Translations under genes and position numbers: made by a program | Source: a virus | Taxonomy: Duplodnaviria > Caudoviricetes | Virus record (IMG/VR): IMGVR_UViG_3300035683_000205 | Span: 1-55,694 of that record | Reading direction: 5' to 3' (one strand) | DNA length: 55,694 nucleotides | Part shown: positions 1 through 22,692 of the stretch, piece after piece | How positions within the stretch are numbered: position 1 is the first letter of the stretch | Layout of the letters: every line of letters begins with the position of its first letter | The notes under the pieces: model-generated | Told to the model about the DNA's origin: nothing | Databases searched by the model: none | What the model saw: only the letters and a program-made list of their open reading frames with translations

Positions 1-1233
1 TCACGCCTCGCGCCTCGCCGGCACGGGCGGGGCCGGCGGCGGGTCCACCAAGTCGCGCAGGTGCTCCCGCGCCAGGTGGGTGTAGCCCATGGTGGTGCTC
101 AGGCTGGAATGGCCGTGCATCTCCTTCACCTTTACGACATCCTTGCCCTGCGCAAGGAGCGTCGTGACGCTGCGGTGCCGCAGGTCGTGCTGGTGTAGCT
201 CGTCGGGGAGCCCCGCGCGCGCCGCGGCCGACTTGAAGCTGTGGCGTAGGGAGGTGATCCGGTCGCCGCCGGCAGCGTGGCGCCTCGTACGGACGTGGTG
301 GAACACCCACTCCGAGCGGCGGCCGTCGTAGGTGGCCATCCGGAAAGCCGCGAAGTGGTCCCGCATCCTCGCCACCAGCCGGGCCGTCATTGGGACCCAA
401 CGCCCCTTCTTCCCCTTCGTGCGACGGCCGTGCGTCCCATGCTCCACCCGCAAAAACCCCTCTTCAAGGTCCACGTCGGCCCACCGCAGCCACAACGCCT
501 CCGACTCGCACCGCTCGCCCGTCTCGCCCAGCGTGAGGGCGTACAGGTCAAGCATGGGATCGCGGGCGCATTCACGGAGGAGGGCTTCGTACTGATCGTT
601 CGTGAGGATCACCGGCGGCCGGTCGTCCGGCTTCGGCGTCTTCACCTGGTGGACCGGGTTCGACTCGCGCAGCTCGAGTTCCACGGCGTACTCGAAGGCG
701 GCGCGGATCGTCGCCCGCTCCTTCTGCACCGTGCGCTTGCTGGCCTTGCCGCGCTGGCCCCCGTCGGCCGCCGGGCGGAACTGCTGCTTTGCCCGCCAGT
801 TCAGGAATTCCCGAATGTGAGGCTTCCGCACCTCGTCTATCTGGATGCCCGGGTAGCGCCGGTCGAAGAACTGCCGCGCGCGGGCCAGGATCGCGCTGTA
901 GCTGGCCTGGGTGCTGGGGGCGAGGTCCGGCACCTTGTCCAGCTCGTACTTGTCGAAGAAGCCGGCGGGGACGGGATCCTTCCCGCGGGGCGCGGCGGCG
1001 CGGCAGGCGGCGGCGCCGATCCCCGTCAGGGGGAGCAGGTCCGGCAGGCCCAGCTTCCGCCGCCTCGCCTGGTCAACCAGCTGCGCGTGCTTCGTCTTCG
1101 CGAACCCCTCCACCTCGCGGCGGCTCACGCCGGGAAGCGTGAAGGTGTGGCGCACGCGGTCCACCTTGAGGATCAGCCGGTAGGAGTCGCCGCGTTTCTC
1201 GATAGTGCCGGGGTACTTCTTCGTCGCTGCCAT
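1..1233 (-). CDS. int: Tyrosine recombinase / phage integrase
   Basis: Catalytic signature TGER..EAL, TK, HDLRH, HGHSSLSTTMGY; short N-terminal arm-binding-like domain. Confidence 0.95.
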   Translation of the reverse strand: MAATKKYPGTIEKRGDSYRLILKVDRVRHTFTLPGVSRREVEGFAKTKHAQLVDQARRRKLGLPDLLPLTGIGAAACRAAAPRGKDPVPAGFFDKYELDKVPDLAPSTQASYSAILARARQFFDRRYPGIQIDEVRKPHIREFLNWRAKQQFRPAADGGQRGKASKRTVQKERATIRAAFEYAVELELRESNPVHQVKTPKPDDRPPVILTNDQYEALLRECARDPMLDLYALTLGETGERCESEALWLRWADVDLEEGFLRVEHGTHGRRTKGKKGRWVPMTARLVARMRDHFAAFRMATYDGRRSEWVFHHVRTRRHAAGGDRITSLRHSFKSAAARAGLPDELHQHDLRHRSVTTLLAQGKDVVKVKEMHGHSSLSTTMGYTHLAREHLRDLVDPPPAPPVPARREA

Positions 1234-1329: not shown

Positions 1330-1554
1330 ATGTCCACACTCCGCAAGGCCCTGCTCGTGCTCGCGCTCATCGCCCCGCTCGGCGTGGCCGCCTGCCTCGA
1401 TTCCAACCACGTGACCGCGCCCGCCGACCCGCAGGCCGCCATCGCCCAGGACACCACCCAGGCGCCACCGCCGAGCACCACGTCGGACCCCACCTGCCTC
1501 TGCGGGATCGGGATGCAGGGCTCCGGCGGCCGGATCGAGTGCACCTGCCAGTAG
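1330..1554 (+). CDS. Small exported (lipo)peptide, 74 aa, candidate signalling propeptide
   Basis: GGAG SD before ATG 1330; signal MSTLRKALLVLALIAPLGVAAC with lipobox VAAC; Pro/Thr linker; C-terminal CLCGIGMQGSGGRIECTCQ. Confidence 0.75.
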   Translation: MSTLRKALLVLALIAPLGVAACLDSNHVTAPADPQAAIAQDTTQAPPPSTTSDPTCLCGIGMQGSGGRIECTCQ

Positions 1555-1575
1555 ACCCTGGCCAGCAGGACACCG

Positions 1576-1604
1576 GCGGGGCCCCTCGTCGGGGGCCCCG
1601 CTTT
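1576..1604 (+). terminator. Intrinsic terminator between the convergent peptide and TPR genes
   Basis: Stem GCGGGGCCCC (1576-1585) / GGGGCCCCGC (1592-1601) followed by TTT. Confidence 0.7.
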
Positions 1605-1605
1605 G

Positions 1606-3000
1606 CTATGCGGCGCGCTCGGTCAAGAGCGCCTCCACCAGCTGCCCGGCGAGGTCCGAGTCTGGGGCCCACAGAACGGGCTCCAGTTCAGGCGCGCAGG
1701 GCATCGCGCCTTCACGCCGCGCCACCTGCTCCATCAGGTCGCCCGCCGCACGGAACACCCGCATCGCACCCATCTGGCGGGACCTCGCGCGTGAGAGGGC
1801 AAGCGCACGCTCGGCGTGCGCCCACTCCCCCAGCGTGACGGCGCCCTGCGCGAGGGCGTAGAGCCCGTCCGCCACCCGGAACCCGTCAACCTCTTTAGAC
1901 GTCGCCATCTCTACGGCCTCTGCGTATACCTCCAGGAACCGCTCCCGGAGCCCGGCACCAGCCGCGGCACGAGCGAGGCCGCCAAGCAGCAGCAGGCGGT
2001 TCACCGAGCGGCAATTCGCCTTGACCAGCGCTTCCAGCACCGGCAGAGCGTCGCCGTACTGCTGCTGATCGAGCTTGAGGTCGGCCCAGTCGGCGGCGAG
2101 ACGGGGTAGGCGCTCCCGGGACACCCGGTACGCGGCCAGCGCCCGCTCGAAATGAGTTCGGATCTTTCCGCAATCCTTCGCCAGCGCTGCCAGGGCGAAC
2201 AGGTCGTGGCAGGCCATCCCCTCCAACTCGGGCAGGCCCGCGCTCCTCGCCAGGTCCGCGGCGTCCAGAAAGCAACCCTCCGCCCCCGCCGGGTCGCCGC
2301 GTTGCACGAGTACGTTGCCGGTGCCGATGATCGACAGCGCCAGCGTCGCCGTATCGCTTCCTGCCCGGGCCAGCGAGGCTGCACGGCCGTATAGACGCAT
2401 CGCCTGTTCTCCGTCGCTGAGGCGCGCGCGCCGCGCCAGCATCAGCATCGCGGGTCCGCCGCTGTGGCGGATGACATCCGCCTGCTCCCGGTCTAGAGCC
2501 GGCCCCGCCAGGCGAAGCACCACCGAGCGCGCAACATCCAACAGCGAGGGCCCAACCGTTCGGCACACCTCGGGTAGGACAGCGTCCAGCTCGCAGAACA
2601 CCGACAGGAGAAACGCTTCGCCGCCCGCAGCCCAGCTCGCCGCGTCGCATATCCCCACCAGCGCCAGCGCGCGCCGCAGCTGCTGCCGCTGCCCCCGTGT
2701 GAGAGCTTCCGCGCGTGACCCCATCAGCACCTCCCCACCCTCCACCCCGATGTCGAAGTGCGCGCCCACCGTTCCCGGAGCGGCCTGCAGTCTGATAGTA
2801 TCCGAGAAACACACCCGGATGTCCGGAAGAGGGCGGCTATCGTGGCACGCTGAAAGCCCGAAGGCTTCCAGGAACGGGTGGACGGCGGGCAGCGGCTTCA
2901 CCCCATACGGGAAGGCCGTGCGCGCCTGCGCCTCTTCAGCGAGGTCTAGCGCCAGCTCGGCGAGCAACAGCATTCGACGTGATCTCCGGTTCGGGGGCAC
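1606..3000 (-). CDS. TPR-repeat protein, candidate peptide receptor (start GTG 3000 or ATG 2973)
   Basis: Tandem helical repeats with TPR spacing (GTGNVLVQRGDPAGAEGCFLDAADLA; LYALAQGAVTLGEWAHAERAL); overlaps the 3' end of the repressor gene. Confidence 0.8.
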   Translation of the reverse strand: MPPNRRSRRMLLLAELALDLAEEAQARTAFPYGVKPLPAVHPFLEAFGLSACHDSRPLPDIRVCFSDTIRLQAAPGTVGAHFDIGVEGGEVLMGSRAEALTRGQRQQLRRALALVGICDAASWAAGGEAFLLSVFCELDAVLPEVCRTVGPSLLDVARSVVLRLAGPALDREQADVIRHSGGPAMLMLARRARLSDGEQAMRLYGRAASLARAGSDTATLALSIIGTGNVLVQRGDPAGAEGCFLDAADLARSAGLPELEGMACHDLFALAALAKDCGKIRTHFERALAAYRVSRERLPRLAADWADLKLDQQQYGDALPVLEALVKANCRSVNRLLLLGGLARAAAGAGLRERFLEVYAEAVEMATSKEVDGFRVADGLYALAQGAVTLGEWAHAERALALSRARSRQMGAMRVFRAAGDLMEQVARREGAMPCAPELEPVLWAPDSDLAGQLVEALLTERAA

Positions 3001-3469
3001 TCAGGTGAGACTCAAGGAGGGAGGCTTGCCAGCGAAGCAGACGGGCCATTTCCGCAGGATCGCGTGCGGGTAGGCCATCATCCTTAGCAGCCTGAACGAT
3101 CTTCTCAGCGATCTCGCTTTCGGTAAGGCCGGGTCCAAGCAGGTGGAACACACCGAGCTTCCAGAAGCGCTTGAAGGACCGGATCAGCTCTTCGGCCTCG
3201 GAGAAGGGCAGGTCTTCGAATGACGATAGATCGCCATCATCGGTTTCCGGCGGGAGCAACCCCCGCCGCTCAAGATACGCCAGGATGATCGCTCGCGTGT
3301 CCGTCTGCATGTACTTCCACGTGTTGTTTCGGAAGCTGCGGATCGCCTCGAAGTTCACGCCGGACCTGCGCACCGCCTCCCGGACGCTCAAGTCTTTAGT
3401 CGCATCCAGGTAGGCGCGCACGAGCGCCTCGTCTCGCCTGTTACGCCCTTGAACGGGCTGTTCGGTCAT
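2936..3469 (-). CDS. CI-like repressor with N-terminal XRE-type HTH
   Basis: LSVREAVRRSGVNFEAIRSFRNN is HTH-like; divergent from a small HTH gene across an AT-rich repeat-laden spacer. Confidence 0.65.
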   Translation of the reverse strand: MTEQPVQGRNRRDEALVRAYLDATKDLSVREAVRRSGVNFEAIRSFRNNTWKYMQTDTRAIILAYLERRGLLPPETDDGDLSSFEDLPFSEAEELIRSFKRFWKLGVFHLLGPGLTESEIAEKIVQAAKDDGLPARDPAEMARLLRWQASLLESHLSAPEPEITSNAVARRAGARPR

Positions 3470-3497
3470 GGCCTTTCGCGTCGTGAGAAGAAGGGTC

Positions 3498-3563
3498 TTG
3501 ACACGGAGTCTTGTTTTGGTCAGTTTAGGTCAGCGACCTAAATTCACCCAAAGAAACCAAAAC
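3498..3563. promoter_or_regulatory. Genetic switch: rightward promoter and operator repeats
   Basis: TTGACA 3498-3503, 17 bp, CAGTTT 3521-3526; inverted repeat TTTAGGTC/GACCTAAA; five phased 10-bp repeats. Confidence 0.7.
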
Positions 3564-3573
3564 GATAACGATT

Positions 3574-3825
3574 ATGGCGGGTGACTCTTCGGCACGCAAG
3601 GTTTCTGTTGAGACGGAAGATGATCTGGACGAGATGCTCGGTCACGAGGACGCGGCGAGGCTGATCGGGCGGACGCCCAACACGCTCTACGGATACTGCC
3701 ACGAGGGCCGGATCCGGAGGACCCGCGACGGGCGGAAGAGCCTGTACCGGAGGGGCGACCTGATGGAGCTGGCCGCATCACTCCGACAGGAGATTCCCGC
3801 GTCCGACCTGACCAAAAGCGACTAG
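3574..3825 (+). CDS. Cro/excisionase-like winged-HTH protein
   Basis: LGHEDAARLIGRTPNTLYGYCHEGRI..RDGRKSLYRRGDL fits the HTH_17/Xis pattern; first gene of the early operon. Confidence 0.85.
   Translation: MAGDSSARKVSVETEDDLDEMLGHEDAARLIGRTPNTLYGYCHEGRIRRTRDGRKSLYRRGDLMELAASLRQEIPASDLTKSD
3808..3822 (+). repeat. Dispersed motif CTGACCAAAAGCGAC, copy 1
   Basis: Exact 15-mer also at 17527 and 25874. Confidence 0.85.
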
Positions 3826-3844
3826 TACCGGACCGGAAAAGACA

Positions 3845-3887
3845 AAGCCCCGTCCGCAGATCCCTGGCAGGAGGGCGGACGGGGCTT
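3845..3887. terminator. 13-bp hairpin after the cro/xis gene
   Basis: AAGCCCCGTCCGC / GCGGACGGGGCTT with an A-rich left flank. Confidence 0.55.
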
Positions 3888-3917
3888 CGGGCCCGGACGA
3901 TCCGGGAGGAACGCCAC

Positions 3918-4460
3918 ATGGGTGGAACAATGGTAAAGGAAGAAGGCACGGGAATCAACGGCGGGCCGCCGATCAACGGGGCGGCGGCGCTGGACGCGAT
4001 GGAGGAGGGGCTGCTGGGCCCCGACGCCATGGCGCTGTTGGAGGAGGGGCGCGCAGCGGTGATGGAGAGCGCCGACCCCGCGCACCTCGCGCGATTGGCG
4101 CTTCGGGTCTTCGAGGTGTTCCTCCAGGCTCGGCTGATCCACGCTTCCCTGGAGGGGAGCCGGGTGATGTTCCGAAACCAGATCCGGGACATGCACCTGC
4201 CGGAGAACGGCGGGAAGGCGAAGAACAAGGAGCACGCGGAGAAGCTGGCCCGCGAGACTCAGGCGTACGCGGAGTACGTCGCGCAGACGGACGACGCCGA
4301 GCGGATCAAGGATTTCGCCTGGGCGCTCCACGACGCCCTGCGCCTTTGCGCGTGCGCCGCGCTCCGCCCGGAGCTGGTCCAGCCGGCTGGACCCCGCCCG
4401 TACCGCTCGGCGGGCCACACCATGCAGGGCGCAGCGGAGCGCGGCGGGAGGGGCACGTGA
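3918..4460 (+). CDS. Hypothetical protein
   Basis: GGAGG SD, GC-biased codons, coupled to the next gene. Confidence 0.7.
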   Translation: MGGTMVKEEGTGINGGPPINGAAALDAMEEGLLGPDAMALLEEGRAAVMESADPAHLARLALRVFEVFLQARLIHASLEGSRVMFRNQIRDMHLPENGGKAKNKEHAEKLARETQAYAEYVAQTDDAERIKDFAWALHDALRLCACAALRPELVQPAGPRPYRSAGHTMQGAAERGGRGT

Positions 4461-4753
4461 GCGCCGCCGCCTGGGCCCACGCCTGTCGGGAGGCGGGGCT
4501 GGAGCCCGGTGCGCCGGTGTCACTCCCCTTCACCGCGACGGTCCCCGGCACCGGCCCCAACCCGTTGCGGGTGGAGATCAGCCTCCGCGGCGACGGCGAG
4601 TCGGTCAAGGTGCTGCACCTGGGGGTGCCGGGCGTCTCCGCCCGCCTGTGCCGGGGCGCAGCTGTGCCTGCCCAGGTCACCTCCATCCTCCGGGAGCACT
4701 TCGCCGCGCAGCTCGGCGGGGGTGCCGCCGCGCCGGCCGGGAGGGGCTGGTGA
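4457..4753 (+). CDS. Hypothetical protein
   Basis: GTGA overlaps at both ends. Confidence 0.55.
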   Translation: MSAAAWAHACREAGLEPGAPVSLPFTATVPGTGPNPLRVEISLRGDGESVKVLHLGVPGVSARLCRGAAVPAQVTSILREHFAAQLGGGAAAPAGRGW

Positions 4754-6105: not shown

Positions 6106-6837
6106 ATGCCCCCTTCTGCCCTGCTCCCCGGCGTCAACCTGGACGAGATCTCGCTCGACAAGGGCGCACACAGCTCGCCCGAGGCCGGCATGTGCCTCCT
6201 GGAAGCGGTCGCCTTCGTAACCGGCTCACCCTTCGACGATCATCCAGAGTGCGTATCGCCGGTGATCGGCGCCTTCGGGCGGAGCTGGAACGACGCGCTC
6301 GCCGAGGAAGACCGCAACCGGCTGTTGAAGCCGCTCATCCCCCGGCTGGTCGGCACGGCCACCGGCCGCGCCGACGAAGAGACCCGGGCGTGGATGGTTA
6401 CCGACTGGCTTGCGCGCGTTAACACCCCCGCCTTCCTCCGCCTGGCAGGGCTGGAGGAGCACGCGCGGGCTCTGGAGTCGCTCGCGCGGATCGTTGATGC
6501 CTCGACCGCTCGCGCGGCGCAGCCGCGCATCGACGCCGCCAGGGCCGCCGCCTGGGACGCCGCCAGGGCCGCCGCCAGGGCGGCGGCCAGGGACGCCGCC
6601 TGGGACGCCGCCTGGGACGCCGCCTGGGACGCCGCCAGGGACGCCGCCAGGGCCGCGGCCAGGGCCGCCGCCTGGGACGCCGCCTGGGACGCGGCCAGGG
6701 CCGCCGCCTGGGACGCGGCCAGGGCCGCCGCCTGGGACGCCCTGCAGCCCACGGTGCAGGCGCTCCAAGATAGCGCGGCGCAGCTGCTCGCGGCGATGTG
6801 CGACGTCGGCAGGACCACCCCGACCCTGGAGGTCTGA
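6106..6837 (+). CDS. Phage protein with AA[RW][AD] tetrapeptide repeats
   Basis: N-terminal GAH..MCLLEAVA..D.HPECVSPVI...WND domain followed by 17 tandem repeats. Confidence 0.8.
   Translation: MPPSALLPGVNLDEISLDKGAHSSPEAGMCLLEAVAFVTGSPFDDHPECVSPVIGAFGRSWNDALAEEDRNRLLKPLIPRLVGTATGRADEETRAWMVTDWLARVNTPAFLRLAGLEEHARALESLARIVDASTARAAQPRIDAARAAAWDAARAAARAAARDAAWDAAWDAAWDAARDAARAAARAAAWDAAWDAARAAAWDAARAAAWDALQPTVQALQDSAAQLLAAMCDVGRTTPTLEV
6535..6738 (+). repeat. 17 x 12-bp coding tandem repeat GCSGCC(A/T)GGG(A/C)S
   Basis: Counted directly from the sequence. Confidence 0.9.
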
Positions 6838-10927: not shown

Positions 10928-11282
10928 CCGCGAGGTCGACGTGAGCGGCCCGTTCATGATGCTGATGCAGCTCTGCATGGCGCACGACAAGACCCCGCTC
11001 CCGCAGCGCGTGGAGTCGGGCGCCTGCCTGCACGTGCCGATCAACGACATCTGGACGGCATGGATCAACCCGCACCCGGTCAACGCCACCTTCCAGCGGG
11101 AGGGGGTCACCGTCGCCACCGTGCCGCCGGTGTCGGCGTGGATCGAGTACAACGGCTGGCCCTGGGGTGTCGTGGGCCCGTTCGGCGGGGACCATGGCGA
11201 CCATCCGGACCCGGACGGGGCGACGCTGGAGCACTTCGCGAGGGCGTGCAGCGAGGCCATGGACGCGGGGGTGGCACCGTGA
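10917..11282 (+). CDS. Hypothetical protein
   Basis: GGAGG SD; YNGWPWGVVGPFGG motif. Confidence 0.65.
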   Translation: MMNSREVDVSGPFMMLMQLCMAHDKTPLPQRVESGACLHVPINDIWTAWINPHPVNATFQREGVTVATVPPVSAWIEYNGWPWGVVGPFGGDHGDHPDPDGATLEHFARACSEAMDAGVAP

Positions 11283-11425
11283 TCCGCCCCCACCTGCTCC
11301 TCTCCACGGCCGTCTCCGCCCTGGTGGCGCTGCCGGCCGACCTGTCCCGGCGCCTGCGGGAGCGCCGACTGCGCCGCGAGAAGCGGATGCAGGTGCGCGC
11401 GTACATCCGCGGGAGGCGCGCATGA
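11279..11425 (+). CDS. Small basic hypothetical protein
   Basis: 4-bp overlaps with both neighbours. Confidence 0.45.
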   Translation: MIRPHLLLSTAVSALVALPADLSRRLRERRLRREKRMQVRAYIRGRRA

Positions 11426-13875
11426 TCTTCCCGCAGATGCTGCTCCCCCTCCACGGGGAGCTGGTGGTGGACCTGTTCGCGGGCGGCGGCGGAGCCTCGG
11501 TCGGGATCGAGCTGGCGCTAGGGCGGTCGCCGGACCTGGCCGTGAATCACAATGCCGCTGCCCTGGCCATGCACCAGGTCAACCACCCTCAAACGCAGCA
11601 TTTCATCTGCGACGTGTTCGAGGTGGACCCGCGCGTGGTCTGCCGCGGGCGGCGGGTGGGGCTGCTCTGGCTCTCGCCCGACTGCACCTACTTCAGCAAG
11701 AGCCGGGGCGGGAAGCCGATCCGGTCCGCCAAGCGGAAGCGCCGGGCGCTCGCGTGGGTGGCGAAGCGCTGGGCCGGCACTGTCCGCCCGCGGGTGTTGA
11801 TCCTGGAGAACGTGGAGGAGTTCGTGGGGTGGGGCCCGCTAGTGGGGCCGCCCGACGCGCTACGGCCCTGCAGCCGGCGTCGGGGGCGCACCTTCCGCCG
11901 CTTCGTCCGCGACCTGGAGGCGCTCGGCTACGTGGTGGAGTGGCGCGAGTTGCGGGCCTGCGACTACGGCGCGCCGACGATCCGCAAGCGCTTCTTCATG
12001 ATCGCGCGATGCGACGGTGCGCCCATCGTGTGGCCGCAGCCCACCCACGGGGATCCCGCGAGCCCGGCGGTGCGCGCGGGCAAGCTCCAGCCGTACCGCA
12101 CCGCGGCGGAATGCATCGACTGGAGCATCCCCATGTGCAGCATCTTCGCCACGCGGGAGGAGGCGAAGGCCTGGGGCAAGGCGCGCGGCCAGGCTCCGCC
12201 CAAGCGCCCGCTTGAGGCGGCGACCAACCGCCGCATCGCCCGGGGCGTGATGCGCTTCGTGGTCAACAACCCCTCGCCCTTCATCGTGCCGGTGCAGAAC
12301 GCCGCCGGCGGGAGCGTGGTGCACTCCATGTCGGAGCCGTTGCGCACGGTCACCGCGTACCCGAAGGGCGGCGGCTTCGCCGTGGCGGCCCCGGTGATCG
12401 CGGGCGTGGGCGGGCGGCAGGGGCAGTCACCGGAGCGCCCGGCCGACGCGCCGTACCAGACGGTCACCGCGAAGGGAGACTCCGCCCTCGTCGCGCCGGT
12501 GCTGTCCCCGCTCACCCACCACGGCGACCGCCGGGCGCACCCGCTCACCGAGCCGGCCCCGACGGTGACGGGCGCGCACCGCGGGGAACTGGGCCTGTTC
12601 GCTCCGGTGCTCGCCGACGTCGCGCACGGTGAGGTGTCGCCCTCCGGCGTGAAGCGCTGGGGCCCGGGCGCCCGCTCGGTGGAGGAACCTTCCGCCTCGG
12701 TGGTGGGGAGCGGCAACCCCGCGCTGGTGGCCCCGTACCTGGTCCCCCGCTACGGGGAACGCGACGGGCAGGAGCCGCGCACGATCTCCACCGAGGAGCC
12801 GATGCCGACGGTGGTGGGAACCGCCAACGGCGGGAGCCTTGTGGCGCCGGTGCTGATCCGGAACCAGACCGGCGACCGCACGGCCCCCGCGCGTGACGTC
12901 ACTGATCCCGCCGGGGCCATCCTCGCGTGCGGAGCGAACCCGGCGCTGGTCGCGGCGCACCTGACAACGTACCACGCCGAGAAGCGACCCAGCGACGTGC
13001 GCGGTTCCGAGCTGGGAGAGCCAGTGGACACGCTCGACACCTCCAACCGCCACGCCCTGGTGGCGACGTTCCTGGCGCAGAACAACGCCGGCGCGTACAC
13101 CGGCGCCGGCCGCGGCGCCGGCGAGCCGGTCTCGACGATCCTCCAGACCGGATCCCACCAGTCGGTGGTGGCAGCCAGCCTCACCAAGCTGCGCGGCACC
13201 AGCTCGGACGCCTCGCCGGAGGAGCCGCTGCACACCGTCAGCGCGCAGGGGACGCACCACGGGCTCACGACGGTCTTTCTCCAGACCCACACCTCCGGTC
13301 ATTCCGCGAGCTGGCCGGGCACGCCCCTGCACACCGTCACCTCCGGGGGGCAGGAGTCCCTCGTAGCGGCCCACCTCTCCCACTTCCAAACGGGCGAGCC
13401 GGATGGGGGCAACGGGGATCCGGCGGCTCCGATGCGGACCATCACCTCCATCCCCAAGGCGGGGCTCGTCTATGCGTTCCTCCAGGCGTACTACGGCACC
13501 GGCAACCAGCAGGGGCCGGGAGCGCCGCTCGCGACCGTGCCCACGGTGGACCGCTTCGGCCTCGTGCAGGTCCAGGTGGACGGCCAGCCGTACGTGATCG
13601 CGGACATCGCCATGCGCATGCTCCAGCCGCGCGAGCTGTACCGGGCGCAGGGCTTCCCCGACTCCTACATCATCGACCGGGGGCCGGAGGGGCGGAAGCT
13701 CACCAAGACGGAGCAGGTGCAGATGTGCGGCAACAGCGTGTGCCCGCCCATCGCCGCGGCGCTCGCCCGCGCCAACGTGCCGGAGATGATCGTCCGCGAG
13801 GCGCCCGCCGGTGTGGATCCGGGCCGATCGCGGCGTTCTCGCACCCGCCGCGCTGCCGCTGGAGGTGCACGGTGA
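11422..13875 (+). CDS. C5 DNA cytosine methyltransferase with internal repeats
   Basis: Motif I DLFAGGGG, catalytic SPDC, ENV, RKR.F, RELYRAQGFP, GNSV; about 12 P..TV/IT repeats in the variable region. Confidence 0.92.
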   Translation: MIFPQMLLPLHGELVVDLFAGGGGASVGIELALGRSPDLAVNHNAAALAMHQVNHPQTQHFICDVFEVDPRVVCRGRRVGLLWLSPDCTYFSKSRGGKPIRSAKRKRRALAWVAKRWAGTVRPRVLILENVEEFVGWGPLVGPPDALRPCSRRRGRTFRRFVRDLEALGYVVEWRELRACDYGAPTIRKRFFMIARCDGAPIVWPQPTHGDPASPAVRAGKLQPYRTAAECIDWSIPMCSIFATREEAKAWGKARGQAPPKRPLEAATNRRIARGVMRFVVNNPSPFIVPVQNAAGGSVVHSMSEPLRTVTAYPKGGGFAVAAPVIAGVGGRQGQSPERPADAPYQTVTAKGDSALVAPVLSPLTHHGDRRAHPLTEPAPTVTGAHRGELGLFAPVLADVAHGEVSPSGVKRWGPGARSVEEPSASVVGSGNPALVAPYLVPRYGERDGQEPRTISTEEPMPTVVGTANGGSLVAPVLIRNQTGDRTAPARDVTDPAGAILACGANPALVAAHLTTYHAEKRPSDVRGSELGEPVDTLDTSNRHALVATFLAQNNAGAYTGAGRGAGEPVSTILQTGSHQSVVAASLTKLRGTSSDASPEEPLHTVSAQGTHHGLTTVFLQTHTSGHSASWPGTPLHTVTSGGQESLVAAHLSHFQTGEPDGGNGDPAAPMRTITSIPKAGLVYAFLQAYYGTGNQQGPGAPLATVPTVDRFGLVQVQVDGQPYVIADIAMRMLQPRELYRAQGFPDSYIIDRGPEGRKLTKTEQVQMCGNSVCPPIAAALARANVPEMIVREAPAGVDPGRSRRSRTRRAAAGGAR

Positions 13876-19544: not shown

Positions 19545-20735
19545 ATGGCCATCCAGCCAACCCTGTTCGAAGGGTCGCGCTTGACCCTGGACGGCGCACT
19601 CGACCTCACCGCGGCGTCGTTGCTGGAGTACGCTCAGAAGTACCGCCATTGGGTGTTCACGTTCAGCGGCGGGAAGGACAGCACTGCGACGCTGACGGTG
19701 GTCCTGCACCTGATCCGCACCGGCCGGGTGCCGCGACCCGACACCATCACCGTGCTGATGAGCGACACGCGGATGGAGCTGCTCCCGCTCCACTTCTCCG
19801 CCATGCAGCTGCTCCGCTACGTCGAGCGGGAGCATGGGGTGGACGTTCGCATCGTCCAGCCTCCGCTGGACCACCGCTGGTGGGTCTACATGCTGGGGCG
19901 AGGCGTGCCGCCGTCCGGCGCTCGGTTCAGGTGGTGCGTTGGCCTGTTGAAGCTCAACCCCATGTGGGAAGAGCAACAGCGGCTCAAGGACGAGCACGGC
20001 GAGCTGCTGATCCTCACCGGCGTGAGGATCGGGGAGAGCGCGGCTCGTGACCAGCGCATCGCCGTCGCCTGCAGCAGGGACGGAACCGAGTGCTCCCAGG
20101 GCTATTTCCAGCGCGACACGCCGAAGAACCTCGGCGCGATCCTGGCCCCCATCATCCACTGGCGCGTGTGCCACGTGTGGGACTGGCTCACGTTCTTCGC
20201 TCCGGAGGCGGGCTTCCCCACCTCCGCGGTAGCGGAAGCGTACGGCGGGGACGAAGCGGAGGAGATCAACGCCCGGACAGGGTGCACCGGATGCCCGGTG
20301 GCCAGCAAGGACCTGGCGCTCACCACCGTGATCATCACCTACCCGGAGGAATGGGGGTACCTCGCTCCGCTCCGCGAGCTCCGCGTGCTGTACGCCACGC
20401 TCAGGCGCAAGGAGCACCGCCTCCGCCAGCCAGGCGGGGAGACGAACGCGGACGGCTCTCTCGCAGCGAAACAGCACCGCATGGGGCCCCTCAAGCTGCC
20501 GTCGCGGCTCTGGGCGCTGGAGGTGGTGCTCGACATTCAGCGGCGCGTTAACGCTGAGGCAGACCAGATTGGAAGGCCGCGCGTTGACCTGATCGACACG
20601 GAGGAGGAGGCGCGCATCCGCGAGTTGGTGGCCGCGGAGACTTGGCCGCGGAAGTGGAGCGGGGAGGAACCCGGGGCTGATGAGTTTTTCGCTGAGGCGG
20701 GCGACCTGTTCACGTCTTCGAAGGGGGGCTCGTGA
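19545..20735 (+). CDS. PAPS reductase family (DndC-like) PP-loop protein
   Basis: FSGGKDS, SDT..E, RWC...LK..P, GVR..ES..R, RTGCTGC. Confidence 0.9.
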   Translation: MAIQPTLFEGSRLTLDGALDLTAASLLEYAQKYRHWVFTFSGGKDSTATLTVVLHLIRTGRVPRPDTITVLMSDTRMELLPLHFSAMQLLRYVEREHGVDVRIVQPPLDHRWWVYMLGRGVPPSGARFRWCVGLLKLNPMWEEQQRLKDEHGELLILTGVRIGESAARDQRIAVACSRDGTECSQGYFQRDTPKNLGAILAPIIHWRVCHVWDWLTFFAPEAGFPTSAVAEAYGGDEAEEINARTGCTGCPVASKDLALTTVIITYPEEWGYLAPLRELRVLYATLRRKEHRLRQPGGETNADGSLAAKQHRMGPLKLPSRLWALEVVLDIQRRVNAEADQIGRPRVDLIDTEEEARIRELVAAETWPRKWSGEEPGADEFFAEAGDLFTSSKGGS

Positions 20736-21343
20736 CGATGCGCTACACCTACCTCGGCGACACCTGGACCCGCCAGGACCTTCGCGGTGCGCTGTGCGAT
20801 GCCGTCCCCCGCCACGACGGAAAGTGCATCACGCGCCGGGGCTCCATGCTGGTGCGCTTCGCCAGCGGAGAGACTCACGTGGTGCTGGTGCGCCGGCTGC
20901 GCGTGAACCCCTACCCGGCGGCCCGCAGCGCAAGTGGGGGGCATCGTTTGGGGCGGATCGTCCTGCGGAAACACGAGAGCGGGTTCCGACTCCATCCGCT
21001 CTGCGGGCCCGCCGTGGCGGAGCACCGGGAGCGGATCCGGGTGATCCTCCCGCCCATGTGTCCGCACTCCAAGAACCCTCGCAAAGGGAGCGCGGTGGTG
21101 CTGGAGTACGCACCCGCCGGCGAGGTGCTGGAGTCGTACAGCGTGCGGCAGGTCGTCAAGCAGTTCGTGGGGGGCTTCGCTGGCCGGGGGAAGTACGGCC
21201 CGATCCGCGACATGGAGGGGATGCTGCGCACCTTCGTCCAAATGGCCGCCGACGCGCTCCGGGTGCCGGTCGTGGGGCGGGCAGTGCTGGTGCTGGACAC
21301 CGGTCGGAAGGAAGTGGACCTGCTCGCGGAGCCCGAGCCGTGA
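20732..21343 (+). CDS. Hypothetical protein
   Basis: GTGA overlaps with both neighbours. Confidence 0.6.
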   Translation: MTMRYTYLGDTWTRQDLRGALCDAVPRHDGKCITRRGSMLVRFASGETHVVLVRRLRVNPYPAARSASGGHRLGRIVLRKHESGFRLHPLCGPAVAEHRERIRVILPPMCPHSKNPRKGSAVVLEYAPAGEVLESYSVRQVVKQFVGGFAGRGKYGPIRDMEGMLRTFVQMAADALRVPVVGRAVLVLDTGRKEVDLLAEPEP

Positions 21344-22692
21344 CGCGCTACTTCGCCGCGGTGTCCCGAGTGGACAGCATCAAGCGGCAGGGGGTGCCAG
21401 TCCCGCTCCCGGAGTGGCTGGAGCACCAGCCAGATGGGTTGCTCACGTCGCTCGCGCACCCCGCGCCCTGGATCGCTGGCCGGGATGAACCTGCCATCGT
21501 CGACTGCGGGGCCCCGAAGTACATCCGGGAGCCGGTTCCGCGGCTGGGCCGCCACCTTGTCACGCCCGCGTACGCCCTCGATCGATACCTCCCGCTCTCG
21601 AAGCCGGGGGGCCGGATTGTCGCCCCGGACCACATCCTCGCCCCCGGACTCCCGGATCCGGAGGGCCGCCGCCGGTTCAACCGCGAGAGCGCAGTGGAAT
21701 TCCTGCAGCTCGATCACCGTGGCCGCATCCCCATGGCGGCCGTGCACGGGGAGAGCGTGCCGGAGCGCGTGGAGCGCGCGGTGGAGCTGGCAGAGGTGGG
21801 CTACCAGAGCCTGGCAGTGGGCGGGCTGGTGAAGCGCTCGCGGCAGACGGCGTTCTGCATCGACGTGGTGGGCCGGATCCGCCGCGCAGTCCCGGGTGTG
21901 TACCTCCACGTGCTGGGGCTGTCGGCGCTGCACTTCGTCGCCGCCTGGCGCAGCCTGGGGGTGGACAGCTGCGACAGCGCGAGCCCGATCCGCCAGGCAC
22001 TCAACGGCGCCTTCTGGGAGCACGCCCACGGCGACCTGGTGGAACACTCGGCCGTCGGCGAGGGGGAGGCGCCCACTGCTCCGATCTGCGACTGCCCCGC
22101 GTGTGCGGGTCTCCGCTTGGAGGGCATCGACACCCGAACGTTCGGGAGCAACGAACACAACATCGGCCGCGGGGCGCACAACCTAGGGCAGTACCTCGCC
22201 GCGCTATCTCACACCGCCCGCCCGGCGCTGGTGCTGGTGTCGTGCGTCAAGGGCAAGCATCGCCTTCCGCTGCCCGCCGCCGACCTCTACGAGAGCGACT
22301 GGTTTCGCAAGGCACGGGCGTACGCGGAGCACCAGGGCGGGCGCTGGATGATCCTCTCCGCAGAGCACGGGTTGCTGGACCCCGCTCAGGTGGTGCAGCC
22401 ATATGAGCGCAGCTTGTACGACATGGGCGCGCCGGAGCGGGAGGCCTGGGCCGGCCGCGTCGTGGGGCAACTTCTCGCCGTGCTTAAACGTGGCGAGCGG
22501 GTGGAGATCCTCGCGGGCAAGCCCTACCGGCAGCACCTCGTCCCGGCGCTTCTGGCCGCGGGGCGCGAGGTGACTGTTCCAATGGCGGGGATGGAGATCG
22601 GGCAACAGAAGGCGTGGCTGCTGCGAGCCGTCCGCGGCCGCGTCGTACAGCAGGTTGAGCAAAGCGACCTGTTCCGGAGCGAGGCCGCGTGA
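21340..22692 (+). CDS. TGT/DpdA-like transglycosylase fused to a DUF6884-like domain
   Basis: DCGA, APD, VHG, AVGG, HVLG, DSCDS, CDCPAC..HN Zn site; then LVSC..K..PA.DLY.S..F..A..YA..W.ILSA.HGL..P....PYE. Confidence 0.85.
   Translation: MTRYFAAVSRVDSIKRQGVPVPLPEWLEHQPDGLLTSLAHPAPWIAGRDEPAIVDCGAPKYIREPVPRLGRHLVTPAYALDRYLPLSKPGGRIVAPDHILAPGLPDPEGRRRFNRESAVEFLQLDHRGRIPMAAVHGESVPERVERAVELAEVGYQSLAVGGLVKRSRQTAFCIDVVGRIRRAVPGVYLHVLGLSALHFVAAWRSLGVDSCDSASPIRQALNGAFWEHAHGDLVEHSAVGEGEAPTAPICDCPACAGLRLEGIDTRTFGSNEHNIGRGAHNLGQYLAALSHTARPALVLVSCVKGKHRLPLPAADLYESDWFRKARAYAEHQGGRWMILSAEHGLLDPAQVVQPYERSLYDMGAPEREAWAGRVVGQLLAVLKRGERVEILAGKPYRQHLVPALLAAGREVTVPMAGMEIGQQKAWLLRAVRGRVVQQVEQSDLFRSEAA

Follow-up and report, generated by a model that had tools for sequence, protein, structure and literature searches.

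Can a temperate phage of a probably diderm soil bacterium choose between lysis and lysogeny by means of a peptide and a receptor that it encodes itself? The question is raised by the left end of the IMG/VR virus record IMGVR_UViG_3300035683_000205 (positions 1 to 55,694; hereafter the window, meaning this whole stretch of 55,694 nucleotides), where a gene for a tetratricopeptide repeat (TPR) protein faces a gene for a small lipoprotein, the two lying between an integrase gene (int) and a repressor-like gene. A TPR gene with a convergent gene for a small lipoprotein that ends in a hydrophobic residue followed by G-S-G-[G/N/T] is a recurrent cassette, and the window pair belongs to a large family of such cassettes that is native to Longimicrobiales (Gemmatimonadota). 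The pair is read here as a putative cognate receptor and propeptide of RRNPP-like design, which in phages would be wired to an XRE-like switch protein. The probability of this reading is put at roughly 45%, somewhat short of even.

The cassette was surveyed by locating TPR genes with a hidden Markov model and scanning the 700 bp past the stop codon for small open reading frames (ORFs) with a signal and a cysteine. TPR genes with at least 600 bp of downstream sequence entered set 1, which comprises 29 genes, including the window and one locus of an unpublished genome. A convergent signal ORF is present at 25 of these, and at 23 it carries G[SG][GSND] in its last 14 residues (22/28 without the unpublished locus), as compared with 1/27 in the upstream control. 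Set 2 is independent and holds 28 loci, one unpublished locus having been left out; its 26 testable TPR genes yield 20 convergent signal ORFs, 13 of them with the tail, an upstream control of 1/26, and no same-strand ORF with the tail. A strict lipobox rule is satisfied by 69 of 2034 distinct small ORFs, and the tail occurs in 35 of these 69 versus 52 of the other 1965. An early scan for CxC-type tails near Longimicrobium paralogues found none and was replaced by the lipobox-based scans. A reading of the window made without database searches (hereafter the sequence-only reading) had pointed to similar TPR genes beside G-x-x-GSG peptides in Longimicrobium-like Gemmatimonadota, and the survey bears this out.

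TPR relatives occur in a Longimicrobium metagenome-assembled genome (MAG) and in the surrounding order and phylum. At E ≤ 1e-40 the family is found in 74/201 sampled genomes of the host order, mostly at eight or more copies each; it is also found in 7/301 sampled genomes of the phylum. The Longimicrobium genome G001 has 16 matches covering most of the family profile (E 1e-154 to 1e-34) and 13 short, weaker ones. The recognizable genes 1-1.3 kb upstream of chromosomal cassettes look like housekeeping genes (Fpg-like, Clp-like, and FolD-like, from translations read by eye), and no phage genes lie near the chromosomal pairs within the 1-1.5 kb of flank examined. Equal chromosomal places are occupied in different genomes, as read from translations, by L017 and L019 (Fpg-like), L027 and L029 (Clp-like), and L024 and L025 (FolD-like); these cassettes are therefore passed on by vertical descent in addition to being carried by phages.

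One orthogroup holds 10 of the 13 TPR genes of set 2 that have no peptide gene, together with two such genes of set 1. In this orthogroup, the TPR gene is followed by a co-directional gene for a 271-residue AraC-type regulator (HTH_18, E 2.4e-17) with a receiver-like N-terminal part, possibly the direct target of the TPR protein. The TPR family is paired with DNA-binding regulators in two settings: an XRE-like upstream gene in prophages and an AraC-type gene in one chromosomal orthogroup. The AraC-linked arrangement is seen at 603-3012 of L008 (G001:C879) and in L033, L062, L069-L072, L075, L079, L082, L084, and L086.

The module in the window and in related prophages

IMG/VR lists the window as a provirus, 55.7 kb long and an estimated 84% complete. 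Its products include a large terminase of the gpA type, a portal protein of the lambda family, an S49 protease, a tape-measure protein, and a tail protein, and it is a lambda-like provirus. Its host is probably a soil bacterium related to Longimicrobiales and probably a diderm, a placement made only via relatives. The G+C content is 70-74% across most of the window and falls to 61% at 3-4 kb. The left end is organized as follows.

1-1233, minus strand: tyrosine integrase gene (int), 410 residues; PF00589 (E 2.5e-25) and SAM-like N-terminal domains
1234-1329: divergent intergenic region of 96 bp between int and the lipoprotein gene; presumed lipoprotein-gene promoter, read from the sequence
1330-1554, plus strand: small prolipoprotein gene, an ORF of 74 residues; GGAGA at 1320-1324, 5 nt before the ATG at 1330
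1495-1551, plus strand: C-terminal motif region of the lipoprotein, residues 56-74, CLCGIGMQGSGGRIECTCQ; G-S-G core flanked by two CxC pairs, forming a Cys-bracketed loop that holds GSGG
1575-1602: GC-rich hairpin with a 12-bp stem, a possible two-way terminator, inside the 51-nt gap separating the convergent stop codons
1606-3000, minus strand: TPR protein gene; 464 residues from the GTG at 3000, or 455 residues from the ATG at 2973 (P0001, the public gene call)
2936-3469, minus strand: repressor-like ORF of 177 residues; shares 38 nt with the TPR gene if that gene starts at its ATG, 65 nt if at its GTG
3470-3573: intergenic switch region of 104 bp with operator-like repeats
3511-3531 and 3535-3555: inverted arms of 21 nt in the switch region
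3513-3532: operator-like 10-mer repeats, GTTTTGGTCA and GTTTAGGTCA, in tandem
3554-3563: inverted copy of the 10-mer repeat in the switch region
3574-3825, plus strand: divergent Xis-like/MerR-like HTH_17 gene, 83 residues, heading the rightward operon; PF12728 (E 1.6e-8), phrog_2474, and phrog_66

Every part named in the sequence-only reading (int, peptide gene, hairpin, TPR gene, repressor-like gene, and switch) is found in its place, and the TPR gene does overlap and follow the repressor-like gene as had been proposed. The 61-nt stretch of the hairpin folds at -33.3 kcal/mol (z -2.0), a value reached equally well by 8 of 200 shuffles; the hairpin has no T-run and is absent from the output of a simple terminator scan. 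For the 96-bp region 1234-1329, a sigma-70 consensus scan found no promoter.

In the N-terminus of the 74-residue protein, MSTLRKALLVLALIAPLGVAAC, basic residues precede a hydrophobic core and the lipobox, whose cysteine is Cys22; residues 1-22 make up the signal. The protein satisfies a PROSITE-like lipoprotein rule (N-terminal basic residues, a hydrophobic stretch, and a lipobox Cys at position 15-35), as do 34 other family peptides. The earlier description of the product as an exported peptide holds with regard to the export signal but not for a plain secretory one, since the signal is of the lipoprotein type and a Cys pair often follows. The mature 52 residues form a Pro/Thr/Ala-rich linker that leads into CLCGIGMQGSGGRIECTCQ, a motif type present in 35 strictly called family peptides. 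The protein has no PHROG family at E ≤ 0.1 and nothing meaningful in Pfam or NCBIfam; the weak NCBIfam rows CypD (E 0.041) and LppK (E 0.043), which came from searches with the 177-residue protein and the peptide, are noise far below cut-offs. Positional homologues of the gene are present in L039, L003, L042 (two copies), and L040, and the L003 copy is matched by BLASTP at E 5e-5.

The prophage-type loci examined number five: the window, L039, L003, L042, and L040. A scan with a closer, four-sequence alignment led to two short loci on metagenome contigs, and viral-contig scans led to L003 and L042; the viral-contig search with P0004 gave no locus. The contents of the four relatives and the tails of their lipoproteins are listed below.

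L039 (contig of genome G497; carries P0002 and P0153): Xis-like gene, divergent 177-residue homologue, TPR gene, convergent 77-residue lipoprotein gene, zinc-ribbon gene, int, host amylase-like gene; tail TCTCGGTNTAGSGNRDGSCTC
L003 (another IMG/VR virus): Xis-like gene, gene for a helix-turn-helix (HTH) protein, TPR gene (31% identity), convergent 78-residue lipoprotein gene; no int nearby; tail ECVCRDGGGVVSSGNKDCPCS
L042 (a third virus): begins at the TPR gene (P0005), then two convergent small lipoprotein genes; tails CGDNGGTVGSGGDC and CDACRDGTGVVSGGG
L040 (genome G495): int, lipoprotein gene, TPR gene, HTH protein gene, HTH_17 gene, in exactly the layout of the window; tail GRGGFGSGGGT

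A convergent small lipoprotein gene lies beside the TPR gene in all five, with TPR identities down to about 30%, and the triad of upstream regulator, TPR gene, and convergent lipoprotein gene is seen in the window, L039, L003, and L040. The layout of a candidate receptor gene with an adjacent propeptide gene, the conservation of which the sequence-only reading had proposed to survey, is thus kept in 5/5 prophage-type loci and in many chromosomal copies. The arrangement goes beyond chance, as other loci have the small ORF, the TPR gene, and the gene upstream of it in an unchanged order and orientation. The Xis-like gene at 3574-3825 has counterparts in L039, L040, and L003, and the 38-nt overlap of the TPR gene with the 177-residue homologue is also present in L039. 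An int homologue adjoins the module in L039 and L040 and is absent beside it in L003 and L042; therefore, the linkage is among the module genes and not with int. In an unrooted tree of 33 TPR proteins, from which rows shorter than 380 residues and one unpublished-genome row were left out, six prophage-type members group at 100/99 support, and the TPR protein of L040 joins this group weakly on a long branch.

Two of the relatives carry further genes beside the module. Past the two tandem lipoprotein genes of L042 (1459-2057), two co-directional genes for 309- and 174-residue proteins (2228-3681) belong to no clear family and are less Ala/Arg/Gly-rich; they are possibly an accessory or defence island. 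In L039, a 185-residue gene with an N-terminal double zinc ribbon (3491-4048) sits between the lipoprotein gene and int and is absent from the window.

The position of the lipoprotein gene admits another explanation, which is judged unlikely though worth serious attention: the lipoprotein would be a lysogenic-conversion product for superinfection exclusion or receptor masking, the TPR protein a separate cofactor of the switch regulator, and the two neighbors only through a lysogen-expressed block. Lipoproteins of this kind include Ltp of TP-J34, Llp of T5, and Cor of phi80 and HK022. They resemble the window protein in being small phage lipoproteins, the window protein too being probably made in the lysogen, and Ltp likewise lies between int and the repressor, the usual place of lysogen-expressed accessory genes. 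However, no sequence relation to them was found, and the mature part of the family peptides is just 20-60 residues, mostly low-complexity linker with a 5-residue tail as the sole conserved element; what follows the linker is a motif of 5-20 residues. The gene's own promoter region, its opposite orientation, and the extra accessory gene inserted alongside in L039 all fit exclusion, as do the Cys pairs, which suit an extracytoplasmic folded tip. Exclusion leaves unexplained why the pair recurs at chromosomal housekeeping loci, where the lipoprotein is coupled to a TPR protein outside any phage, and the peptide's lack of a PHROG family also speaks against it.

Tails of the family peptides

The family peptides, 43-90 residues long, begin with a lipoprotein signal; a low-complexity linker follows, often with a Cys pair after it, and then comes the tail. 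Most chromosomal copies have the tail at their very end (IMGSGG, MFGSGN, MIGSGT, LLGSGVG, VIGSGG, and HLGSGG). The residues before the GSG core vary among the paralogues of one genome, as in G001 (ATFGSGN, IMIGSGT, and GGLGSGT), and are kept among orthologues (HLGSGG, HLGSGG, and YLGSGG; PVIGSGG three times with AVIGSGG). The motif occurs twice in one precursor in L002 and L015. In the prophage peptides, the core lies 3-8 residues from the end, within a Cys-bracketed loop.

A tail at the very C-terminus also invites an explanation that involves no signaling. TPR domains commonly clamp extreme C-terminal peptides, and TPR proteins act as secretion chaperones; thus, the TPR protein might recognize the tail of its own unexported precursor and serve as a chaperone, or as a feedback sensor of Sec/lipoprotein export or envelope stress, relaying to the partner regulator. 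Such a role would dispense with the release and re-import of a lipidated, sometimes disulfide-bonded product and would accord with the pairing of the family with regulators. It is difficult to reconcile, however, with many diversified paralogues bearing distinct tails in each genome, which fit a general export sensor poorly, and with the internal motif repeats of L002 and L015, which point to released units; moreover, the 430-residue proteins with 7-8 repeats are much larger than known dedicated TPR chaperones. This explanation is accordingly held to be improbable, slightly more so than exclusion.

Polymorphic paralogues are typical of competition loci, and small lipoprotein toxins (entericidins) and Gly/Ser-rich microcin tails (class IIb microcins) exist. 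A toxin/immunity or bacteriocin-like system, in which a Gly-rich lipopeptide harms membranes or competitors and the TPR protein protects or regulates, is nevertheless very improbable. The mature peptides are hydrophilic linkers, neither amphipathic nor hydrophobic, and some members of the TPR family that lack a peptide gene pair with an AraC-type regulator, which is a better fit to regulation than to immunity. No toxin, immunity, or export family was found for the TPR protein, the 177-residue protein, or the peptide of the window, the chromosomal neighbors having been read only as translations.

The TPR protein and the probable switch protein

The receptor candidate has no N-terminal signal that can be seen in its sequence. 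Its Pfam matches, TPR_12 and TPR_16, are weak and below curated cut-offs. A word-indexed search returned one relative, 48% identical, from a Gemmatimonadota MAG, and an exhaustive phmmer search reached 740 representative clusters at E ≤ 1e-3, of which 201 pass E ≤ 1e-10. Most of these relatives are about 430 residues long and align only over residues ~180-460; the N-terminal part is shared only by P0002-P0005 and a few others. A scan of 42 family members finds TPR_12 in 40 and the MalT-like TPR model in 30, and no HTH family in any of the 42 or in the window's protein, in agreement with the earlier remark that the protein has no obvious HTH. Phmmer with the single protein against the PDB gave nothing relevant, and a structure-atlas search with its N-terminal 185 residues gave no usable look-alike. 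The idea that the N-terminal domain is an ImmA-like protease was rejected: P0001 has no HExxH, His72 is not conserved, and there is no peptidase family match. Chromosomal TPR proteins (e.g., L009, L017, and L020-L025) begin with a basic RRWR-x-PPP-[L/V]-L stretch followed by E-G-x-x-[I/V]-L, which is absent in the prophage subfamily.

The AlphaFold2 (AF2) model of the TPR protein, built from a 42-sequence alignment, has a pLDDT of 93 and a pTM of 0.89. It is all-helical except for a small hairpin: helices fill the N-terminal part to residue ~132, about 7-8 helix pairs come after residue 134, and one more helix closes the C-terminus. A wide fold scan (VIA-align, 48,161 chains), in which helical repeats score Z 13-14 through arrangement alone, is led by LGN (Z 18.2) and Pins (17.6). 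RapH ranks third (Z 16.9, root-mean-square deviation (rmsd) 6.3, 291 aligned residues, model 66-404 on RapH 4-370), and its alignment, which begins at model residue 66, takes in helices ahead of the repeats. MalT domain III (16.3) and RapI (15.7, fifth) come next, and the pLS20 Rap (15.1), the phi105 Rap with peptide (14.5), NprR (13.9), and AimR (12.3 and 12.0) stand lower. The fold comparison that the sequence-only reading had called for thus returns Rap, MalT, NprR, and AimR among the matches without singling out RRNPP receptors. On the strength of the model, the architecture may be read as Rap-like; RRNPP membership is not claimed because generic TPR proteins score as high as Rap. A complex prediction of the TPR protein with peptide residues 45-74 scored 0.03 against a mark of 0.32, was run without controls, and is evidence neither way.

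The 177-residue protein has no sequence match in Pfam, PHROG, NCBIfam, or the PDB. Its closest relative, at 68% identity, has a locus tag adjoining that of the TPR relative in the same MAG, and in L039 (69% identity), L040, and L003 the gene immediately before the TPR gene encodes a homologue. An AF2 model from a five-sequence alignment (pLDDT 72.6) has a four-helix N-terminal domain (residues 11-69, pLDDT 83-90), a disordered linker, and a helical C-terminal domain. Foldseek returned nothing at E ≤ 1e-3 for the model. In the wide scan, two XRE regulators rank first, both at Z 6.5 and both aligned to residues 4-83: 2o38_B (rmsd 5.2, 74 aligned) and 2a6c_B (rmsd 3.9, 73 aligned). These Z values are too low to conclude; other HTH_3-type folds rank next. 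Judging from the model, the protein is probably an XRE-like, repressor-like HTH switch regulator co-transcribed with the TPR gene. It had been called a CI-like repressor; a repressor-like, XRE-type label is fair, but the name CI goes beyond a weak fold match at Z 6.5 with no family match.

The 10-mer GTTTWGGTYW has three copies in the 55.7-kb window, all within 3513-3563, where 0.03 copies would be expected. The equivalent region of L039 holds GTTTTGGTCA at 1195-1204 and a one-mismatch copy at 1155-1164. These repeats could serve the Xis-like HTH_17 protein equally well.

A proposed peptide switch and its relation to known systems

On the RRNPP-like reading, a leftward promoter in the 104-bp switch region would drive an operon of the 177-residue protein and then the TPR protein, a layout that is observed and from which expression in the lysogen may be expected; the 38-nt overlap suggests translational coupling of the two genes. 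The 177-residue protein would bind the GTTT[T/A]GGT[C/T][A/T] repeats and silence the rightward Xis-like operon, as its position, the repeats, and the weak HTH fold match suggest. The 74-residue precursor would be exported by Sec, lipidated, and cleaved at Cys22, and its tail with the G-S-G core would be freed by extracytoplasmic proteolysis. The freed peptide would re-enter via an oligopeptide permease and occupy the groove of the TPR protein, which, itself devoid of a DNA-binding domain, may act in a Rap-like manner on the 177-residue protein through its phage-specific N-terminal domain. The level of the peptide, and hence the density of lysogens or infections, would then bias the lysis-lysogeny switch. 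Import via Opp/Dpp-type binding proteins (PF00496) is plausible, and such proteins are found in 3/3 host-clade genomes tested.

This reading is favored because a cytoplasmic TPR protein without a DNA-binding domain is linked to a small exported precursor that has a conserved C-terminal unit beside variable positions, and because the unit is repeated internally, the paralogues have expanded, and mobile-element copies lie inside a switch module.

Several observations weigh against it. All the peptides are lipoprotein precursors; therefore, the product is membrane-anchored unless cut off. About half of the peptides have a Cys pair, which, as far as the sequences indicate, suggests a disulfide-stabilized form that acts outside the cytoplasm and is a poor fit with import into a reducing cytoplasm. 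The presence of PF00496 says little because it is found in 11/14 control genomes. The two genes are convergent and therefore share no promoter, and the peptide gene is missing in 6/29 (set 1) and 13/26 (set 2) of the TPR family members. The DNA-binding role attributed to the 177-residue protein derives from the Z 6.5 fold match and from position.

The receptor side is also equivocal. The repeats of the family are of the canonical TPR_12 type by sequence, LGN and Pins outrank Rap in VIA-align, and the Foldseek matches listed are generic TPR proteins (LGN, Pins, OGT, and kinesin light chain) with no RRNPP protein among them. The best 60 of the 178 rows obtained with the 42-sequence profile against the PDB are consensus TPR, LGN, and kinesin light chain, again with no RRNPP protein. 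Homology to RRNPP receptors is not demonstrable by sequence or fold comparison, and the membership in RRNPP that the sequence-only reading had implied is not upheld, since only canonical TPR proteins are seen in those 60 rows and generic TPR folds equal the Rap scores.

A close parallel in design is Rap-Phr, including RapI-PhrI acting on ImmR/ImmA of ICEBs1 and the Rap proteins of phi105 and phi3T. In both, a cytoplasmic TPR protein that has no DNA-binding domain is encoded beside a small exported propeptide with a C-terminal active part, genomes carry many paralogues, and mobile-element copies adjoin the int / repressor | xis switch. Rap structures are also among the best fold matches of the window's TPR model. 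The differences are that the likely host of the window belongs to Gemmatimonadota, probably a diderm and not Bacillota, that no sequence-level relation was detected, that the repeats are canonical TPR_12, that the peptide gene is convergent rather than co-directional (unusual for RRNPP), and that the precursors here are all of the lipoprotein type with a shared hydrophobic-GSG-[G/N/T] tail. ICEBs1 itself is laid out as int-immA-immR | xis, and the order int - X - HTH | xis of the window mirrors it in gene order only. The COG2856/HExxH metalloprotease of the ICEBs1 type does not follow the HTH gene here, as judged by peptidase families and by an HExxH search of P0001.

The arbitrium system of SPbeta-like phages (AimR-AimP-AimX) likewise has a phage TPR receptor and a small propeptide in the lysis-lysogeny region and embodies the idea of peptide counting, and AimR is among the fold matches given above. 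However, AimR has its own HTH and binds DNA, whereas no HTH was found in any of the 42 members of the window family, and DNA is more likely bound by a separate XRE-like protein. Nothing resembling an aimX output can be seen here, and the convergent orientation and the lipoprotein-type signal differ as well.

Among phages of diderm hosts, vibriophage VP882 encodes VqmA(Phage)-Qtip, in which a PAS-HTH receptor senses the host small molecule DPO and no signal is encoded. On the proposed reading, the window would resemble it as a temperate phage of a diderm host with a switch tied to a density signal via an extra regulator acting on the repressor, but it encodes both the candidate signal and the candidate receptor, and the latter is a TPR protein. 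In cyanobacteria, the RGSGR peptides of PatS/PatX act on HetR; PatS has no Sec or lipoprotein signal, and HetR is not a TPR protein. As proposed for the peptides here, these are ribosomal peptides of a diderm with a G-S-G core near the C-terminus and a cytoplasmic regulator as the target, yet the flanking arginines are absent from most tails here, and the resemblance is one of motif only.

Precedents for two unusual features of the precursors exist among RRNPPA propeptides. In PMC9765709, SPII-type signals are predicted in 211 of 2734 propeptides, 59 of the 211 being on mobile elements, where they are over-represented, and 19 of the 59 in prophages. Repeated pheromone units are described in PMC9765709 and PMC11343458. 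A lipoprotein signal and repeated units are therefore not fatal to an RRNPP-like reading. In the accessible portions of PMC10075063, PMC9765709, and PMC12700828, the RRNPP family, peptide signaling via cytoplasmic TPR receptors, and arbitrium are described only for Bacillota, and RRNPP_detector is applied only to Firmicutes and viruses (PMC10075063, same portion). The relatives found here belong to Gemmatimonadota, outside that range.

A full-text literature search found no description of the TPR-lipoprotein cassette, and neither Gemmatimonadota nor Longimicrobium was mentioned in any paper that it listed; supplementary tables lay outside the search and might hold related viral candidates. The design is already known; what appears to be new is the host phylum, the family of the receptor, the lipoprotein type of the precursors, and the GSG ending.

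A broader proposal, more tentative than the pairing itself, is that Longimicrobiales use a peptide language with many orthogonal channels per genome, each comprising a TPR receptor and a lipoprotein-anchored propeptide with a released hydrophobic-GSG-[G/N/T] tail. Temperate phages would have captured one channel and coupled it, via the phage-specific N-terminal domain, to an XRE-like switch. The outcome would be an arbitrium-like system in a diderm phylum, either independent of RRNPP or sharing a very old origin with it.

If the pair is a true receptor and signal, the TPR-peptide design extends to a diderm soil phylum, the window holds the first candidate for a peptide switch that a phage outside Bacillota encodes itself, and a gene family that many Longimicrobiales genomes carry in 8 to 16 or more copies is given a function. 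Direct tests are feasible, as the predicted ligands are short and synthesizable and repeats stand out clearly in the 104-bp fragment predicted to be the DNA target.

Away from the module, three further regions of the window merit mention. A PAPS-reductase-like ORF (19545-20735) is followed by a 670-residue ORF joining a TGT (queuine tRNA-ribosyltransferase-like) part to DUF6884; together (19545-22692) they presumably form a phage 7-deazaguanine DNA-modification cluster. In a 902-residue ORF (11167-13875), the C-5 cytosine DNA methylase domain spans residues 100-281 only. In a 243-residue protein (6106-6837), the N-terminal half is conserved and AAWDAARAAAR-like repeats form a long run; L003 has a syntenic copy at 3791-4522.

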